37,268 nt of DNA from Escherichia phage PEC14. Under the pieces are notes generated by a model. That model was given only the letters and a program-made list of their open reading frames with translations, searched no databases and was not told the DNA's origin. Shown here piece after piece: positions 3,098 to 36,042 of this stretch; positions within the stretch are counted from its first letter, which is position 1, and every line of letters starts with the position of its first letter. The DNA lies in the sequence record NC_073051.1; one strand, given 5' to 3'. The translations under genes and the position numbers were made by a program.

Positions 3098-3388
3098 ATG
3101 GATAAGCTAAACGAGTGGTTATTCGCCCTTGCGTGTCTGGCTGGCGGCTTCGTAGGCGCACGCATTCATGGCGAGGCTACGAAAGGGCCGCTAAACTTCG
3201 TTTTGTATGTTGTAGTTGGCTTCCTGTGTGCCATATTTGGCGCACCGGCTATCGCTGAGTGGGCTGGTTTGTCGGGTGAGCGCACTGTCGCCGGTTTAGG
3301 CTTCGTAACCGCGATCTTCTGGATGCCAATCGCCGACCGGATCAGGGAGACTATTGCGTCGTTCCTACTTCCGGGGGGTGCAAAATGA
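3098..3388 (+). CDS. putative holin (96 aa, three hydrophobic segments)
   Basis: Three predicted TM stretches; immediately upstream of lysozyme gene. Confidence 0.5.
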   Translation: MDKLNEWLFALACLAGGFVGARIHGEATKGPLNFVLYVVVGFLCAIFGAPAIAEWAGLSGERTVAGLGFVTAIFWMPIADRIRETIASFLLPGGAK

Positions 3389-3630
3389 TTATCTCCGTCC
3401 TGTTGTTTGTTATCATAGGGGCTTCGTCCCTGTTTAACGTATATGCGCCGTCCGTTCAGGATGGTATCTTAGGCCGGGTGCTGTATCTGTTAACGGCAAT
3501 GATCTGTCTTATCGGATTGTTGCAAACAGGAGACGTATCTGATACCACCTGGACCGCGTTAATCTGGCTGTTTGCATTGCGCACCCTGCGTAATGCTGTT
3601 TTGAATGGGGTAAAACATGCGATTCAGTGA
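3385..3630 (+). CDS. small membrane protein, holin/antiholin-like (81 aa)
   Basis: Two or three hydrophobic segments; overlaps neighbours on both sides within the lysis cassette. Confidence 0.45.
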   Translation: MIISVLLFVIIGASSLFNVYAPSVQDGILGRVLYLLTAMICLIGLLQTGDVSDTTWTALIWLFALRTLRNAVLNGVKHAIQ

Positions 3631-4108
3631 CAACGGTCTACGATTTACGGCAGCCTGGGAGGCTTTCAGCCCGGTGCCGTATTTCGCGACCAAGAAAGAG
3701 CAGGCCCGCGGCCTGTACACCTGGGGTTATGGTCATACCGGCACTAATCCGCCTCGAAGCATTACCCGCGAGGAAGCGCTGGCACTTCTCAAGCGCGATG
3801 TGGCGTATGCCGAGGATTGGGTGAACAAATACGCACATCCGAGCATTAACCAGGCGCAATTCGACGCGCTGGTGGACCTGGTAATCAATGCCGGTCCGGG
3901 GCCGATCGTACCGGATGACGTCGCGAATGATTTCGATGATGCGGTGCGACTGGGAGACTGGGCGAAGGTCCGTGCTACTCTGCCGCAGTTCCGCAAGCAA
4001 GGTGGGGAAGTGCTTAAGGGTCTGGTACGCCGTGCAATCGGCAGACAGGCGTTGTTTGATGGTAAGCAGTGGGACGTTGCCGAGAAAATCGGGCGTAACG
4101 CTGCATAA
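3617..4108 (+). CDS. endolysin, phage lysozyme family
   Basis: Lysozyme-like N-terminal signature GLRFTAAWEAFSPVPY...LYTWGYGHTG; 163 aa; follows the holin-like genes. Confidence 0.75.
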   Translation: MRFSDNGLRFTAAWEAFSPVPYFATKKEQARGLYTWGYGHTGTNPPRSITREEALALLKRDVAYAEDWVNKYAHPSINQAQFDALVDLVINAGPGPIVPDDVANDFDDAVRLGDWAKVRATLPQFRKQGGEVLKGLVRRAIGRQALFDGKQWDVAEKIGRNAA

Positions 4109-4326: not shown

Positions 4327-4387
4327 GCTTGACTCGCAACCAACATAGACGCCATACTGCGACCAATCAACGAGAGGAGTAATCAAG

Positions 4388-7750: not shown

Positions 7751-9271
7751 ATGACCGTTAACGTTGACAACCAGCACCCGCTCTATGCGCGCATCGCGCC
7801 AGAGTGGAAAATGATTCGCGATTGTGTAGCAGGGGAGCGCGCCGTGAAGGCGTGCGGACCATTGTACCTGCCACACCCAGCCAGCGGCGACACCACCGAC
7901 CCGAAATCGCGTGCGCGCTATAAGGCATATAAGCAACGCGCTGTCTTCCTGAATGCCACCGCCCGAACCCTTAACGCGCTGTTAGGCGTAGCCTTCGCCA
8001 AACCGGTGAGTATGGACCTTTCCGGGGCAATGGCGGACCTGATTGATGACGTAGACGGCAGCGGGATGCCCCTGGCGCAACTCCTGCGCGGCGCTATGTC
8101 GGAAGTGCTGCAATCGGGCCGTGCTGGCTTTATGGTGGACTACGACCGCCAGGCTAACTTTGATGAACTGGGTAACGTAGTGCCGCAGACAGCCGCTGAA
8201 ATGGCGACACACCGCCCGCTTATCCGCCTGTATACGGCAGAGCAGATCATCAACTGGCGGCAGACCCACGGTGTCGACACGCTAATCGTGCTGAAGGAAA
8301 CGGACGAAATCAGCACCGAAGACCCGGACGACTTCGCAAACCACGAGGTAACCATCTGGACCGAGCTTCGCATGATTGACGGCAAGGCACATGGTCGACG
8401 CTGGTTTTACAACGCGGACACGTCAGACGTGCAGATGGACTTGCCGCGCGGCTTCACCCGCACCGACTTAGTGCCGCTGGTGGATGCCTCCGGTAATGCG
8501 CTTACTCAACTGCCATTTTGCTGGTGTGGTGCTGTGGACAACAACGCGACGCCGGACGCCGCACCGCTGGCGGATATTGCATCCATCAACATTAAGCACT
8601 ACAACGCCGAAGCAGACGTCGCCGAGATTGCGCACATTGTGGGCCAACCTACACTCATTGCGACCGGTCTGACCCAATCATGGGCCGATAAAAACCTGAA
8701 GGGCGGCATCGCACTGGGCGCGACTAAGGGCGTTATCCTGGGGCAGAACATGGACGCTAAACTTCTTCAGGCGGAGGAGCGCAACTTGTCTGTTGCCCTG
8801 TGTGAGCGTCGAGAATTGCAAATGGCTAAACTGGGCGCTGCCCTGGTTGAGAAAGGGACTGCACCTAAGACGGCAACCGAAGCGGCCTACGATGCGCAGA
8901 CCGATAACAGTATCCTGTCGCTTATTGCCGGTAATGTCGAGAAGGCTTTCAACCGTGCGCTGCAAATTGTCCAGCTATTCACTGGCGACACCGCCGACCA
9001 GCGCGTAACGCTGAACAAGTTCTACACTGAAATCACGGTTGATGCGCAGCTTATGACCGCGATGATGGCAGGTGTGCAGACCGGTACTGTCCGACTGGCG
9101 GATTTCATCAAGTGGATGATGGCCCAGGGCGTTATCGATGACTCGCAAACCGTTGAGCAGGTGGAAGACGAATTGCGAAATCAGAATCCATTGCCTCAAA
9201 TGTCCCCGGATGCGGTAGAATCTGCCGAAGAAGACCCGGACAAGGTAGCGGACAATGGCGAAGACAATTAA
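7751..9271 (+). CDS. portal protein
   Basis: 506 aa gene between terminase and head morphogenesis gene; AAGGAAA SD; acidic C-terminus. Confidence 0.7.
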   Translation: MTVNVDNQHPLYARIAPEWKMIRDCVAGERAVKACGPLYLPHPASGDTTDPKSRARYKAYKQRAVFLNATARTLNALLGVAFAKPVSMDLSGAMADLIDDVDGSGMPLAQLLRGAMSEVLQSGRAGFMVDYDRQANFDELGNVVPQTAAEMATHRPLIRLYTAEQIINWRQTHGVDTLIVLKETDEISTEDPDDFANHEVTIWTELRMIDGKAHGRRWFYNADTSDVQMDLPRGFTRTDLVPLVDASGNALTQLPFCWCGAVDNNATPDAAPLADIASINIKHYNAEADVAEIAHIVGQPTLIATGLTQSWADKNLKGGIALGATKGVILGQNMDAKLLQAEERNLSVALCERRELQMAKLGAALVEKGTAPKTATEAAYDAQTDNSILSLIAGNVEKAFNRALQIVQLFTGDTADQRVTLNKFYTEITVDAQLMTAMMAGVQTGTVRLADFIKWMMAQGVIDDSQTVEQVEDELRNQNPLPQMSPDAVESAEEDPDKVADNGEDN

Positions 9272-10358
9272 TCAATATATGGCGGATCGAATGATTCGCC
9301 GACACATTTTCACCCAGCGCCTGAGTAATGACCAGGCGCGAAGGGTGCTGTCCATGTGGGAGAAGTTCCGGCCTACATTACTGGGGAAGCTGACCGAGTT
9401 GCTTGATGGCAAATCGTCAATGAATAACCGGGCACTTTCCACGCTGTTAACGCAACTCGACAAGACCGTTAAAGCAGAATTGCGCACCGAGTTTAAGGTG
9501 TTGGCTGAAAGCCTTCAGGAGTTTGCCGACACGGAGGCTGATTATCTCGCCGACACATTAACGGCAGCGATCCAGCCGGTGGTCGCCGTACCTGCGGTCG
9601 AGGTGGTTGGCGTAGTGACCGGTGCGCAGATCGCAGCGACGGCTATGAAAAACCCGTTCCAGGGAAATACCATGATGCAATGGCCTGATTCATTGTCTGA
9701 GTGGACCAGGACGCAGATCGGGAATCAGGTGCGCGCTGGATTCATCCAGGGCAAGCCAACTATGGAAATTATAGCGGACGTGAGGCGCGCGCTCGGCGGT
9801 CGTAGTGCGCAAGCCATCTCGAGCGTTGTTAAGTCCGCAGTCAACCACTATGCGGCGACAGCCCGCGAACTAATGGTAAAAGCAAATGACGATATTCTCG
9901 AAGGTCGCCAATGGTTATCTACATTGGACACGCATACTTCTCCCATGTGCCAGCTACGCGATCGCCTGTTTTATCCGGTTGATGTTACTCCCGACACCAA
10001 AGGAAAGCGCGGCGGGAAAGTGGTGGCTGGGTCACAATATGGCGCTGGTCCGGGCAAGTTGCATTATTGTTGCCGGTCGACGGAGACGTGGAAGGTTAAA
10101 GGCATGGAAGATTGGCCCAGTGGTAAGCGTCCGGCCCTGAAGGCTGATGCGGGTCGATTGCTGAGTGAGCAGGTCGACGCGCAGACTGATTTCTTCTCAT
10201 GGGTGCAGCGCCAGCCGCGCCATATCCTGGAAGAATTATACGGAGTGCAACGCGCCGACCAGATTATGCGCGGCGTGAAAGTGCCGAAGATGTTCACCGA
10301 TTCAGGCGAACTAATGACTATCGCACAGCTTAAAAACCGGGGGTTATGGCGTGATTAA
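9255..10358 (+). CDS. head morphogenesis protein (Mu F-like minor head protein)
   Basis: Position after portal; Mu F-like region with conserved Cys (LDTHTSPMCQLRDRLF). Confidence 0.65.
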   Translation: MAKTINQYMADRMIRRHIFTQRLSNDQARRVLSMWEKFRPTLLGKLTELLDGKSSMNNRALSTLLTQLDKTVKAELRTEFKVLAESLQEFADTEADYLADTLTAAIQPVVAVPAVEVVGVVTGAQIAATAMKNPFQGNTMMQWPDSLSEWTRTQIGNQVRAGFIQGKPTMEIIADVRRALGGRSAQAISSVVKSAVNHYAATARELMVKANDDILEGRQWLSTLDTHTSPMCQLRDRLFYPVDVTPDTKGKRGGKVVAGSQYGAGPGKLHYCCRSTETWKVKGMEDWPSGKRPALKADAGRLLSEQVDAQTDFFSWVQRQPRHILEELYGVQRADQIMRGVKVPKMFTDSGELMTIAQLKNRGLWRD

Positions 10359-10680
10359 ATATGCAGCGATTGGACTGATTATCGGTCTGGCGGTAGGATT
10401 CTGGCTAGGTGACTCCTATCGTGCTGGCGTAGTGGCGGAGGCGGCGCAAGAAGCGCAAGCCCAAGCCCAACGGCAGCAAACTAAAGTCGTTGAGCGCTCC
10501 GTGCAGGCCGAACAAGCCCGCGACGTAGAATACCGGACTATCACGAAAGAGGTTGTTAAATATGTTACGCGCCCTAACCGCCCTGATTGTAGTTTTGATG
10601 TTGAGCGCGTGCGGATCAAGCAACGTGCCGTTGATGCCGCTAACGGAGTCGGCACTGCGACCGCCGTGCAAGTTCGATAG
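10351..10680 (+). CDS. i-spanin (Rz-like)
   Basis: N-terminal TM helix then charged Q/A/E-rich coiled-coil-like region; contains the embedded lipoprotein gene in another frame. Confidence 0.55.
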   Translation: MIKYAAIGLIIGLAVGFWLGDSYRAGVVAEAAQEAQAQAQRQQTKVVERSVQAEQARDVEYRTITKEVVKYVTRPNRPDCSFDVERVRIKQRAVDAANGVGTATAVQVR

Positions 10681-10792
10681 CCCGTCCGCAGACCCCGACG
10701 AGGATTTGATGATTGACGTGAAAAATATGGAATGCGGGGCGAAGCTAAGGGCGCAGGTGCTGGAGTTGCAGCAAATAATTAAGGGGCCGTAA
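10562..10792 (+). CDS. o-spanin lipoprotein (Rz1-like), overlapping i-spanin
   Basis: Signal peptide with lipobox LMLSAC; starts inside the 3' part of the Rz-like gene and extends past it. Confidence 0.55.
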   Translation: MLRALTALIVVLMLSACGSSNVPLMPLTESALRPPCKFDSPSADPDEDLMIDVKNMECGAKLRAQVLELQQIIKGP

Positions 10793-10806
10793 TGGCCCCT
10801 TTTTCG
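10782..10806. terminator. bidirectional terminator between convergent genes
   Basis: aggggccgtaatggcccct followed by ttttt; minus-strand gene ends at 10807. Confidence 0.65.
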
Positions 10807-11571
10807 TTAGCGCGGAATGCCGCAAATCTCGTTGAGTGTTTTCACATCCAGCGCCACCGCCGTGGATTTTGGCTTGTCCGGGTATGGGATGAATTGCTCA
10901 ACTTCAGGCCATGCCTTAATCAGCTTCTTGTCAGTATTGTGCAGGTCCAGTACACCGGTAACGGTGAGTTTGAACGCATCATACTTCGCGCGCAACTCGC
11001 GACGGGCCTTGTCGTTGCGGTCCAGGCGCTTACAGAAATCATGATCCGCCGGGAAATCTGCACGGCAGCGTGGCTTATAGATCGGCAGCGCTTTCCCGTC
11101 CTCGTCCACTTCACACACTGAAGCCAGCATAACTTCTTCAAACCCCGGTACGATATCGCCGAGATCGGGAGATAGCTTATTCATGTATTTATATTCCCAG
11201 TATCCGCGATGTACGCGGTATTGGTGGCCGTCACCGCTCAAGGATAAGGTGCGAACATTTCCGCCTGCGTTGATTTCGAAAGTGGCGTCGTAAACGCTGC
11301 CGATACCTTTCGGGCGGTCGGTGTTATAACTATATGTCGCCTTGTTGGTGTAGACGCAGACGCCGTACATCTGCGACGGGTCATCGCTGATTGCCTCGAT
11401 ACGCTCGCGTAGCGCGGAGAATGTGCGAATGCCGTCCGGCATACAGTCCAGCGTGATTGCGTACGCCAGATCGCGTGAGTCCATCATGATTGTTTTGGCT
11501 TCGGTAGCGATTTCGTGGTCGCGCAGGATGTTAGCCAGGATCTGATTTTTAATATCTTTCGTCAGTCTCAT
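10807..11571 (-). CDS. hypothetical protein (254 aa), minus-strand insertion in head module
   Basis: ATG with GAGGA SD 8 nt upstream; no motif recognised. Confidence 0.6.
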   Translation of the reverse strand: MRLTKDIKNQILANILRDHEIATEAKTIMMDSRDLAYAITLDCMPDGIRTFSALRERIEAISDDPSQMYGVCVYTNKATYSYNTDRPKGIGSVYDATFEINAGGNVRTLSLSGDGHQYRVHRGYWEYKYMNKLSPDLGDIVPGFEEVMLASVCEVDEDGKALPIYKPRCRADFPADHDFCKRLDRNDKARRELRAKYDAFKLTVTGVLDLHNTDKKLIKAWPEVEQFIPYPDKPKSTAVALDVKTLNEICGIPR

Positions 11572-11609
11572 TTTTGTGTCCTCATGTTGGGGCTTTCGCC
11601 CCGTTTGGT

Positions 11610-11924
11610 TTAGTTAAATTTGATGTTGCCACCGGTGGAAGTTAAGCGGGCACATACAGCTTCAACGGCATCAACGCACATGAAATCGTTAAAGGCTTCG
11701 ACCAGGGCGTTTATGAAAGATGCCGGAACCAGGCCGCAAGCCGGATTATCGAATGCCGCGGAGTTGATCGCCGCTTTTGCCGCTTCAGAAGCATTCATGC
11801 TCTGGCACAGATTCAGCGCTTCCGCGTTACGCATTGCGTGAAAGGTAAAGGTATTCGCTACGGTAGCTTTATTGAAACGGGCCATTGCGGCGTCTACTGG
11901 AGTTGCTACGGTCATGTTAGTCAT
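11610..11924 (-). CDS. hypothetical Ala-rich protein (104 aa)
   Basis: Start chosen at ATG 11924 (MTNMTVAT) with AGGAAG SD; co-oriented with 10807..11571. Confidence 0.45.
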   Translation of the reverse strand: MTNMTVATPVDAAMARFNKATVANTFTFHAMRNAEALNLCQSMNASEAAKAAINSAAFDNPACGLVPASFINALVEAFNDFMCVDAVEAVCARLTSTGGNIKFN

Positions 11925-11953
11925 TTTGTCTTCCTTCATATCTCTGTTGGTGT

Positions 11954-11989
11954 GCAACCAATATACTGCAACCAACATTCACAATGCAA
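11954..11989 (-). promoter_or_regulatory. candidate promoter for minus-strand cassette: two ATTGGTTGC-type motifs plus TTGCAT-N18-TATATT
   Basis: Motifs read on minus strand, oriented toward the start at 11924. Confidence 0.4.
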
Positions 11990-12078
11990 GCGAATTTTGC
12001 GATTATTTTTATCGCTGATAATATTAAGGCGTGAAGTCAAGCGGGTGGCCCGCTTTGCCACAATCCCAGGGGGATAGC

Positions 12079-12783
12079 ATGAAACTTACTAAAGCAGAAT
12101 ATGACGCGTTGCCCGAGGGCATGAAGGCTTTATTTGTTGCCGATGGTGATGGGTATAAATCCACGTTCATGACCGCCGAAGAAGTACAGGCGGAGATCAA
12201 GGGTCTGAAAGACAACAACGCGAAGCTGGTTAGCGAGAAGAAAGCAGAAGCCGAACGTCGCGCCGAAGCCGAGCGCCTTGCGAAAGAGAAAGAGGAAGCC
12301 GCCGCGCGCAAAAATGGCGACCTCGAAGCGATCGATAAGTCCTGGAAAGATAAGTTCGCAAAACATGAAGCGGACACATCTGGGAAGATCGAAGCCTACC
12401 GCAAGCAGATCCACGACCTAACCATCGGCAGCGCTGCCAAAGATTTGGCCTCGAAGCTGTTCGGTAAGAATGCAGGCATCATGCAACGCCACGTTATGGA
12501 CCGCCTCACGCTGGAAGACGGCGAAGACGGCAGCCTGAAGGTGCGGGTGTTGAAGGACGGCAAACCATCCGCGCTGACTATGGAAGAACTGGAGAAAGAA
12601 TTCCGTAGTAACGCCGATTTTGCATCCGTCCTGGCTGGCACGCCAGCCGGTGGTGCGCCGAGCAAACCGACGCAGGTCGTAGAAGATGTGAAGTCGAAAA
12701 TCACTATGGGCCACAGCTTCGGTATCGCTGACTTGACGAAACAGGCAGGGGATATCATCGCTAAAATGGGCGACGACGAGTAA
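12079..12783 (+). CDS. scaffolding protein
   Basis: Highly charged, coiled-coil-like (AEAERRAEAERLAKEKEEAAARK); immediately upstream of the capsid gene; AGGGGGA SD. Confidence 0.6.
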   Translation: MKLTKAEYDALPEGMKALFVADGDGYKSTFMTAEEVQAEIKGLKDNNAKLVSEKKAEAERRAEAERLAKEKEEAAARKNGDLEAIDKSWKDKFAKHEADTSGKIEAYRKQIHDLTIGSAAKDLASKLFGKNAGIMQRHVMDRLTLEDGEDGSLKVRVLKDGKPSALTMEELEKEFRSNADFASVLAGTPAGGAPSKPTQVVEDVKSKITMGHSFGIADLTKQAGDIIAKMGDDE

Positions 12784-12787
12784 GCAG

Positions 12788-12815
12788 ATCGCCCGCGAAA
12801 GCGGGCGATTTTGCG
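12788..12815 (+). terminator. hairpin/attenuator between scaffold and capsid genes
   Basis: atcgcccgcgaaagcgggcgat followed by tttgcg. Confidence 0.45.
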
Positions 12816-12880
12816 AGCGCGTAAATCTAAGGTAACATTAACGACACTGAGCGAATGCTCATAACTCAAAGGATTCTAAT

Positions 12881-13981
12881 ATGTCTTTAACAGTGTTCCA
12901 GCGTAAACTCGTCACCGCGGTTACGCAAATGATTCCCGATAACCTGAACGTGTTCAACGCTGCCGCTAACGGCGCTGTTGTTCTCGGCACGGGTGAAGTG
13001 CTGAAGGACGTTGTAGAAAAAATGTCCGTAGGCTTGATCGCCAACCTCGTTACCGACCGTAACGCCTACGCCCCTGTCGGTACTCCGGCGACCGCAAAAG
13101 TGCTGGCGCGTATGCTGACCAACTCGGTTAACCTTTCCGCGAAAGTTGGTCCGGTAGCAATCACTAAGGCCATGATGGCTAAGATCGAAACCAACGTTAA
13201 CAGCGTTGCGGCTGAGATTGCGGCGCAGGCTACCCAAGCGATTATGCTGCACTACCTGAAAGCGGGTATCGGCGCAAGTAAAGCGGCTATTGAAAGCAAC
13301 GCAGCGGCAAAATACACCCAACCGGCGCGCGTTGACGGCGTGGGTGGTCGTACCTTCCCGACCCTGGCAGACTTTCCGCTGGCGGCTTCCAAGTTCGGCG
13401 ATCAGGCGTCTTTGATTAAATCCTGGTTTATGGACGGCGTTACCTGGGCGAATTTCATTGCATACCAGGCGCTCCCATCTGCCGAGCAGGTATTCGCGAT
13501 CGGCGATCTGCAGGTAATGGGCGATGGCCTGGGCCGCCGTTTCATTATCTCCGATGCCGCTGCCGATGCAATGGGCGCGGGTAAAATGCTGGGCCTGGTG
13601 CCTGGCGCGGTTGCAGTTACCACCAACGGCCTCGATATGCTGGCGCAAGAAAAAGGCGGTAACGAGAACATTGAACGCTGGTGGCAGGGCGAGTTCGACT
13701 TCAACGTGGCTGTTAAAGGCTATCGTCTGAAGGCGTCCGCTCGTACTCCGATCGAAGGTGTTCGCTCGTTCAAACTGGACGATATTACCACTTCCGCTAA
13801 CTGGGAACTGGATCAGGGCCAGGTAGACAACGCACCGGCAACCGTTCAGGATGTTGGCGCTGTTGGTGACGGCGATACTAAAGGCCGTCGTAAGACCCAG
13901 GCCGCACAGGCAGTGCCGACCCGTCACATCAAGGAAACGGCGGGCGTACTGGTTACGCTGACTGCGACCACAGCGTCCTAA
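12881..13981 (+). CDS. major capsid protein
   Basis: 366 aa; AAAGGA SD; directly after scaffold and followed by a strong terminator. Confidence 0.7.
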   Translation: MSLTVFQRKLVTAVTQMIPDNLNVFNAAANGAVVLGTGEVLKDVVEKMSVGLIANLVTDRNAYAPVGTPATAKVLARMLTNSVNLSAKVGPVAITKAMMAKIETNVNSVAAEIAAQATQAIMLHYLKAGIGASKAAIESNAAAKYTQPARVDGVGGRTFPTLADFPLAASKFGDQASLIKSWFMDGVTWANFIAYQALPSAEQVFAIGDLQVMGDGLGRRFIISDAAADAMGAGKMLGLVPGAVAVTTNGLDMLAQEKGGNENIERWWQGEFDFNVAVKGYRLKASARTPIEGVRSFKLDDITTSANWELDQGQVDNAPATVQDVGAVGDGDTKGRRKTQAAQAVPTRHIKETAGVLVTLTATTAS

Positions 13982-31137: not shown

Positions 31138-31167
31138 ACTATAGTGCAACCAATCTATTGGTTGCAA
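31138..31167 (-). promoter_or_regulatory. perfect palindrome TGCAACCAAT-CT-ATTGGTTGCA with TTGCAA-N18-TATAGT
   Basis: Read directly at 31145-31166; overlaps the 3' end of the HAD gene and lies upstream of the gene starting at 31090. Confidence 0.45.
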
Positions 31168-33051: not shown

Positions 33052-33085
33052 AATATAATGCAACCAATATGATTATGCAACCAAT
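33052..33085 (-). promoter_or_regulatory. candidate promoter: two ATTGGTTGCAT copies with TTGCAT-N17-TATATT
   Basis: Read on minus strand at 33060-33068 and 33077-33085; -10 at 33052-33057. Confidence 0.45.
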
Positions 33086-36008: not shown

Positions 36009-36042
36009 ACTATACCGCTACGCGACCAATTCAGCAACCAAT
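36009..36042 (-). promoter_or_regulatory. candidate promoter ATTGGTTGCTG-N17-TATAGT inside 3' end of VRR-NUC gene
   Basis: Motif copies at 36022-36030 and 36034-36042; -10 at 36009-36014. Confidence 0.35.

Follow-up and report, generated by a model that had tools for sequence, protein, structure and literature searches.

What do two minus-strand genes do in the middle of a plus-strand head gene block? The question was raised by a first-pass annotation of Escherichia phage PEC14 (NC_073051.1; the window is the whole stretch of 37,268 nt that was analysed), in which positions 10782-11989 were described as a self-contained cassette of two co-oriented minus-strand genes of unknown function. Both open reading frames (ORFs) are present:

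10807-11571, minus strand: nmad5, 254 aa; PF18757 and phrog_1965; orthologous to the gene whose mutation lets phages SM_A8 and SM_S22 escape Tmn, with K216 as the escape residue
11610-11924, minus strand: alanine-rich ORF of 104 aa; phrog_24635, no match in Pfam

We read the locus, with a probability of about 0.55, as a Dhillonvirus transcription unit that is accessory, non-structural and non-enzymatic and acts on the host. In substance the cassette is not new, nmad5 having been published as a site of escape from Tmn and the gene in the slot beside it having been noted, in Sodalis phage SO-1, as a possible moron. What is added here is the architecture of this cargo slot, two corrections of annotation, the position that K216 takes within the family signature, and the argument that the label of Nmad5 as a DNA-modification enzyme is unsupported. 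Over 10300-12500 the window matches Escherichia phage PEC9 (ON548431.1, genus Dhillonvirus; window position = ON548431.1 position + 1420) at 100% identity; 157 phage records match this region, of which 132 cover at least 80% of the query.

Family and conservation of Nmad5

The first-pass annotation recognised no structural or enzyme signature in either protein, and proposed profile and structure searches. For the 254-aa protein the absence of a signature was not borne out, as the searches identified its family, without an enzyme fold. Residues 1-253 aligned to model positions 1-206 of 206 in Pfam PF18757 (Nmad5, "nucleotide modification associated domain 5") with an E-value of 8.6e-59 and 199.5 bits (cutoff 27), and hhalign against 80 diverse representatives of the family gave a probability of 100% (E 1.4e-48). 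A search with the family profile returned at least 839 representatives at 50% identity, typically of 170-240 aa. Their conserved elements are an N-terminal MtRLTxxIR..NAL helix, an nfGG..L.fnG hairpin, ADHxL and a long helix, and in the C-terminal part TTVxKLxEaWPEAxELLP followed by T..AL...LN.l(C/I)GLP. K216 is the conserved family Lys of TTVxKL, invariant in 36 of the 36 Dhillonvirus cluster representatives. The MRLT N-terminus, GG beta-hairpin, ADHxL, TTVxKLxxxWPE and C-terminal LNxxCGxP are shared with the PF18757 members YuA gp15 and the M6/SN1 clusters, from which the Dhillonvirus form differs by an extra insert of ~25 aa (residues ~115-141) and by the variable region 51-90. The C-terminal LNxxCGxP was also considered as a beta-clamp-binding motif and dropped, its spacing not matching the known consensus.

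The protein is 89% identical, without gaps, to Nmad5 of SM_A8 and 90.6% identical to that of SM_S22. Across the genus the two ends of the protein hardly change and residues 51-90 and 111-120 vary; these segments coincide with low-confidence parts of the AlphaFold2 model, which is mostly helical with a small hairpin (predicted local distance difference test score, pLDDT, 73.5; predicted template modelling score, pTM, 0.71). A search of BFVD with this model retrieved other Nmad5 proteins only, the sequence-profile search of PDB gave nothing credible, and NCBIfam and PADLOC returned no match. Neither a catalytic fold nor an active-site motif was recognised by the profile and structure searches, and no DNA-binding or ATPase fold was detected. 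The gene is near-core in Dhillonvirus (about 148 of the 157 records; Sodalis phage SO-1 lacks it) and has changed more rapidly than the capsid gene: nucleotide identity is 80-90% in 78 of 137 records, compared with 4 of 157 for the capsid gene, most records of which lie in the 90-95% band. Its codon composition is native, with a GC content at third codon positions (GC3) of 0.64 (neighbours 0.61-0.67).

Nmad5 and escape from Tmn

In SM_A8 and SM_S22 the orthologous gene sits, as here, between Rz1 and the scaffold gene with K216 conserved, and SM_A8 also has the arrangement of this phage, the 104-aa gene followed by the 254-aa nmad5. Tmn-escape mutants of SM_A8 and SM_S22 carry nmad5 K216E and K296E, respectively (Yamashita et al. 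2025, Commun Biol, PMC11846954, where the gene is described as "near the capsid gene"). Reversion restores sensitivity to Tmn and introduction of the mutation confers escape; a phage with nmad5 deleted is viable and still Tmn-sensitive, and cloning of nmad5 from SM_S22 failed, apparently from toxicity (PMC11846954). The two substitutions concern the same residue: K296 of SM_S22 is K216, because the SM_S22 coding sequence (PP627283.1 CDS0006) is annotated from 240 nt upstream of the conserved ribosome-binding site (RBS) and ATG. The extended version is 80 aa too long, crosses the promoter and overlaps the divergent scaffold gene, and the "80-aa longer" Nmad5 of SM_S22 is an annotation artefact.

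The proposal of an accessory cassette is supported in part, nmad5 being dispensable and influencing how the Tmn defence turns out (PMC11846954). As far as Tmn has been tested, these data do not bear out the proposal that the cassette is an anti-defence element: the published anti-Tmn gene is a different one, ORF35 of SM_S22, and SM_A8, with both genes of the cassette, is inhibited by Tmn (PMC11846954). Since SM_A8 carries the 104-aa gene and yet is blocked, the 104-aa protein is not anti-Tmn, at least for the Tmn tested.

Is Nmad5 a DNA-modification enzyme?

If Nmad5 were a DNA base-modification enzyme or part of such a pathway, Tmn might sense the modified DNA and K216E might alter the modification. 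In YuA, M6 and SN1-type Pseudomonas phages the Nmad5 gene does lie among thymidine-hypermodification genes (kinase, aGPT-Pplase and deoxyuridine monophosphate (dUMP) hydroxymethylase), and PEC9 encodes a Dam-type methyltransferase, ~20 kb from nmad5. [quoted passage not shown] Most other contexts of the family (six loci were inspected, together with a tblastn breakdown by host and organism) also lack modification genes, and no catalytic fold supports the label. The deletion phage is still Tmn-sensitive (PMC11846954), i.e., loss of the putative modification leaves sensing unchanged, which argues against Tmn sensing a modification made by Nmad5; the known trigger of Tmn is a protein (PMC13001434). 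In the phenotyping of the BASEL collection, restriction-resistant Queuovirinae with 7-deazaguanine modification were contrasted with Dhillonvirus, Drexlerviridae and other small siphoviruses (PMC8594841). We therefore found no support for the label "DNA modification enzyme", and regard a role in base modification as unlikely.

The inspected loci bear on another possibility, namely that Nmad5 is an accessory factor of replication or recombination, perhaps an organiser or loader for the DUF2800-SSB-PolA-SNF2 proteins, and that its link to Tmn is indirect, through altered replication intermediates. Relatives of Nmad5 are found repeatedly inside replication/recombination modules: in mEp235 and Stx phages the gene follows N and precedes kil/erf/ssb in the lambdoid pL operon; in Bas97 between a helicase and a resolvase; in Vibrio phage Athena1 upstream of replication protein O; and in a metagenomic phage directly upstream of DUF2800-SSB-PolA-SNF2, the same module that PEC9 carries. 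A truncated beta-clamp-like gene occurs as an alternative slot neighbour of nmad5, and the toxicity on cloning (PMC11846954) would fit a replication role. On the other side, nmad5 is dispensable and missing from SO-1, lambdoid phages with O/P-type replication carry the family too, a DNA-binding or ATPase fold is lacking, and the gene evolves faster than the capsid gene. A replication factor is thus a possible but rather doubtful explanation. The lambdoid pL operon (ral/sieB/kil region), a known site of early host-modulating genes, resembles the locus studied here in that it holds Nmad5-family genes; it differs in that the present phage is a virulent siphovirus with nmad5 in the head module.

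The cargo slot and the 104-aa gene

The second ORF extends mechanically over 11610-11978 (minus strand, 122 aa), as in GenBank. The 104-aa form starting from the ATG at 11924 is better supported, because it has an RBS, its homologues (102-109 aa) start at the same residues and the 122-aa start lies inside the promoter; the PEC9 entry in GenBank annotates the gene in the longer version, with its start inside its own promoter. The elements around it are:

11932-11937, minus strand: RBS GAAGGA, 7 nt upstream of the ATG at 11924
11591-11944, minus strand: indel or cargo slot of 354 bp relative to SM_S22-type Dhillonviruses, in the 5' untranslated region (5'UTR) of nmad5
11588-11603, minus strand: GGGGCGAAAGCCCC hairpin between the 104-aa gene and nmad5 (-11.5 kcal/mol, z -2.95)

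The 354-bp insert comprises exactly the 104-aa ORF, its RBS and the GGGGCGAAAGCCCC hairpin, with CCAACA microhomology on both sides. Comparison of gene content at this position in related phages, another check proposed at the outset, revealed at least five states of the slot among Dhillonviruses:

empty: SM_S22 and four IMG/VR genomes
104-aa gene: about 59 of the 157 Dhillonvirus records, including this phage and SM_A8
53-aa gene: EK99P-1 and Dru_SM5, about 4 of the 157 records
135-aa gene: HK578, Zar3M and SM_W22, about 7 of the 157 records
170-aa beta-clamp-like gene: EP23 and 101114BS4, about 16 of the 157 records

The GGGGCGAAAGCCCC hairpin, which has no U-run on the minus strand, forms the conserved 3' boundary of the slot and is common to the 104-aa, 135-aa and 170-aa inserts; the 170-aa insert keeps, besides the hairpin, the last six codons of the 104-aa gene. 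In SO-1 only the clamp-like gene is present in the slot (gp07, "possible moron gene product" in the record). The 170-aa gene (Shigella phage EP23, 5407-5919; Sodalis phage SO-1, 5082-5600) encodes a truncated beta-sliding-clamp-like protein with DVRYYLNGVFF..SDGHRL that belongs to a family of 287 phage records. It falls short of the threshold for Pfam DNA_pol3_beta_2 (E 7e-4) and hits phrog_947 (processivity factor) at 9e-9; the label of its best PHROG, phrog_3007 ("RusA-like Holliday junction resolvase"), looks like a mislabel.

The pairing of the two genes is thus not fixed, the 104-aa gene being inserted in the 5'UTR of nmad5, and the description as a self-contained two-gene cassette could not be kept. 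This also bears on whether the two proteins form a functional pair (neutraliser and toxin, or adaptor and effector) in a fixed cassette. The genes are adjacent and co-oriented under one promoter, and nmad5 was apparently toxic when cloned alone (PMC11846954); against this, ~60% of the Dhillonvirus records have nmad5 without the 104-aa gene, the toxic clone was derived from SM_S22, which naturally lacks that gene, and the 104-aa protein occurs without Nmad5 in a Dibbivirus, in Ackermannviridae and in metagenomic phages. We consider a functional pair very improbable. A fusion protein encoded on an 8.8-kb metagenomic contig, in which residues 1-48 of the 104-aa protein are joined in frame to the last ~40 residues of Nmad5, amounts to a naturally occurring loss of most of each gene, so both appear dispensable in nature.

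For the 104-aa protein the first impression of a missing signature stood: searches of Pfam, PDB (sequence profiles), NCBIfam and the defence database PADLOC were empty and only phrog_24635 was assigned. It contains 22% alanine and has an invariant core of H29, DNPACGLVP (59-67) and C91. A Zn site formed by H29, C63, C83 and C91 was considered and rejected; such a four-ligand site is not conserved, because C83 is replaced by Val in the homologues of Pantoea phage and Ackermannviridae. Homologues without Nmad5 (52-74% identity) were found in Pantoea phage AAM37, in Ackermannviridae and in metagenomic phages, in one of which the gene adjoins a primase; all those inspected lie among small early or DNA-metabolism genes, in several phage lineages. 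The phage with the 74%-identical homologue (47-kb phage contig, 1344-6309) also has a PurZ-like adenylosuccinate synthetase, an HD phosphohydrolase, a Dam methyltransferase and a DNA ligase, and its PurZ-like gene suggests that it may have a 2-aminoadenine genome. The 104-aa protein is probably the product of an independent, horizontally mobile early gene, which would act as a host-takeover or counter-defence factor.

The suggestion that the cassette occupies the position of a moron holds for one of its genes. The 104-aa gene is a precise presence/absence indel, has a lower GC3 (0.53, compared with 0.61-0.67 in its neighbours) and has homologues in unrelated enterobacterial phages, whereas nmad5 is near-core with native codons. 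With classical morons and SO-1 gp07 the locus shares a reversed extra gene between two late genes, presence/absence polymorphism and a flanking hairpin. It differs from classical morons in the status of nmad5 and in that the 104-aa cargo lacks its own promoter and its own terminator; it is the unit as a whole that has a promoter-like region (8/12 consensus positions and conserved boxes) and a hairpin common with the spanin operon.

Promoter region, box motif and hairpins

Two putative promoters lie back-to-back between the slot and the scaffold gene:

11954-11989, minus strand: promoter region of the unit, -35 TTGCAT (11989-11984), 18-nt spacer, -10 TATATT (11965-11960)
11978-12006, plus strand: divergent sigma-70-like site, TTCACA, 17 nt, TG-GATTAT; 9/12 matches and a TG extension

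The ATTGGTTGC-type promoter that had been proposed for the cassette at 11954-11989 was confirmed as regards its box, which is real and enriched, and is weaker as regards its hexamers, which agree with the consensus at only 8 of 12 positions and which the promoter scan did not call. Two TTGGTTGC boxes (11975-11968 and 11961-11954, minus strand) overlap its spacer, -10 and start region. TTGGTTGC was counted 15 times in the window, where 1.75 were expected, and none of 100 shuffles reached 15. Of the 20 TTGGTYGC sites 12 are non-coding, though non-coding sequence makes up roughly 10% of the window, and most of the non-coding sites belong to the replication region on the minus strand or to the region at the genome end. 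At three sites (the promoter of the cassette, 31153 and 33067) a box stands directly 5' of TATAnT, and the ORF at 1522 is preceded by the same -10 and 5'UTR (TAnATTGGTYGCACACCAACA..GAGGA). TTGGTTGCA boxes also decorate promoters of the minus-strand replication/early region, and these shared boxes suggest that the nmad5 unit would be expressed early.

TTGGTYGC sites were recorded in the window at 1055-2032, 4343-4366, 16804, 28073, 31153-31158, 33067-33084 and 36029-36041, and in the PEC9 record at 41397-41726; some of them form direct repeats 14-17 bp apart, and the pair at 31146-31165 is palindromic. The boxes probably define a phage-specific class of promoter or operator. A candidate for their binding is PEC9_55, encoded outside the window, which has a helix-turn-helix/sigma-70 region-4-like domain (Pfam E 3e-7 to 7e-7) and is labelled "recombination nuclease inhibitor" in GenBank.

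In phages without cargo the same two-box promoter is found 31-46 nt upstream of the ATG of nmad5, which indicates that the promoter belongs to nmad5 and that the 104-aa gene rides in the nmad5 5'UTR. The plus-strand site at 11978-12006 scores better than the promoter of the cassette and abuts the TTGGTTGC boxes; it would drive the scaffold and capsid genes. As the boxes sit just upstream of it, one regulator could switch both directions.

At its other end the unit is closed by a further hairpin:

10781-10801, element to 10806, both strands: GC-rich hairpin (AAGGGGCC-loop-GGCCCCTT), spanning the 14-nt gap between the stop codons of Rz1 and nmad5

A bidirectional terminator had been claimed at 10782-10806. 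The hairpin is real and stable on both strands (-18.6 kcal/mol, z -2.65, on the plus strand; -17.1 kcal/mol, z -2.81, on the minus strand), but a convincing U-tract is present on the plus strand only, the minus strand offering just UUAAUUAUUU. By sequence and folding it is predicted to be a strong intrinsic terminator for the plus strand and a weaker one for the minus strand. Terminator-like sites were not enriched in the 5-kb region (5 found, 5.0 expected from shuffles), so the case for this terminator lies in its placement and not in the scan. An Rfam search of 10000-13000 found no RNA families.

Position in the head gene block

The genes on both sides of the unit are those named in the first-pass annotation, which had placed it between the spanin genes and the scaffold gene in the plus-strand head block:

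9255-10358, plus strand: head morphogenesis gene, upstream flank
10351-10680, plus strand: Rz, upstream flank
ending at 10792, plus strand: Rz1, upstream flank
12079-12783, plus strand: scaffold gene (phrog_206), downstream flank, followed by the capsid gene
12881-13981, plus strand: capsid gene, downstream of the scaffold gene

This location between head morphogenesis/spanin and scaffold/capsid genes is what would favour Nmad5 and the 104-aa protein as head-assembly or virion components. Both genes, however, are encoded on the other strand and have their own promoter; no structural family was matched in Pfam or PHROGs by either protein, in agreement with the earlier view that neither has a structural-protein signature; nmad5 can be deleted (PMC11846954) and SO-1 has no copy of it; and most relatives lack the 104-aa gene. 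A structural role is hardly credible.

Two side observations concern the surrounding block. Rz and Rz1 (10351-10792) close the portal/head-morphogenesis operon ~6 kb away from the holin and lysozyme genes (3098-4108), and the lysis cassette is therefore split. In ON548431.1 two features, PEC9_12 and PEC9_16, are affected by annotation problems: the portal protein is labelled "minor tail protein" and, as described above, the 104-aa gene is entered as 122 aa.

Proposed action of the nmad5 unit

In the reading that we prefer, an accessory, non-structural and non-enzymatic unit acting on the host, a weak sigma-70-type promoter with two TTGGTTGCA boxes would drive nmad5, transcription of which would end at the hairpin common to the spanin operon. 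A recombination-prone slot between promoter and nmad5 holds one of several unrelated small genes, or none. Nmad5, mostly helical and non-catalytic, would act by protein-protein contact on replication-stage or membrane-proximal machinery, with the invariant N-terminal helix and the C-terminal TTVxKL-WPE...LNxxCGxP module as its contact surfaces. Such contact would account for its apparent toxicity to E. coli although plaques form without it.

For the escape phenotype a precedent is available in T2. The early T2 protein RIIB activates Tmn by binding to it directly, this binding can be uncoupled from activation by one residue, and loss-of-function (nonsense) mutants of RIIB escape Tmn (2026 preprint, PMC13001434). 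The likeness is that single-residue changes in a phage protein decide the outcome of Tmn immunity, and that RIIB is early and non-structural, as Nmad5 would be if its inferred early expression is correct. The differences are that RIIB and Nmad5 have no relationship in sequence or fold, and that RIIB nonsense mutants escape whereas the nmad5 deletion does not. The latter might be explained if wild-type Nmad5 contacts Tmn, or contacts the true trigger, and if sensing is redundant, with Nmad5 as one of at least two Dhillonvirus ligands, so that a deletion phage would still be sensed. K216E, on the most conserved surface of Nmad5, would then bind Tmn unproductively and block its activation; with such a decoy the point mutant would escape while the deletion would not. 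We offer this decoy model tentatively and consider it possible, with the odds clearly against it.

Several points weigh against our reading. Yamashita et al. interpret Nmad5 as a DNA-modification enzyme (PMC11846954). In the structure model 47 of the 254 Nmad5 residues are below pLDDT 50, and a small catalytic site may be present in the variable middle of the protein; the model of the 104-aa protein is too poor (pLDDT 53, pTM 0.32) to lend structural support to any role. The boxes from which early expression was suggested also precede plus-strand ORFs near the genome end. The decoy model, moreover, is built by analogy with T2 RIIB.

A more far-reaching version, which we hold to be speculative and unlikely to be right in all its parts, is that the Nmad5 family is misnamed and comprises a widespread early phage protein that acts by protein binding. 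Dhillonvirus Nmad5 would be a direct ligand of Tmn (a KAP/YobI-type NTPase) with K216 as the activation switch and K216E as a dominant decoy, and at the slot, as a hot spot of recombination, enterobacterial phages would exchange genes for counter-defence or host takeover, such as those of the truncated beta-clamp mimic and the DNPACGLVP protein.

Implications for Dhillonviruses and the Nmad5 family

The slot naturally tolerates inserts of 0 to ~0.6 kb, which makes it an obvious landing site for engineered payloads, and both the 104-aa protein and the other genes carried there could be screened for anti-defence activity at little cost. The nmad5 K216E substitution is already used to engineer therapeutic Dhillonviruses. 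Nmad5 itself represents a large phage protein family that bears the label of a DNA-modification enzyme, by now also taken up in citations, on the basis of the gene neighbourhood in one phage group only. As the Dhillonvirus copy has no partner enzymes, no enzyme fold was detected and relatives lie in contexts of early replication genes, the question of how a Lys-to-Glu change brings about escape shifts from DNA chemistry toward a protein-protein mechanism.

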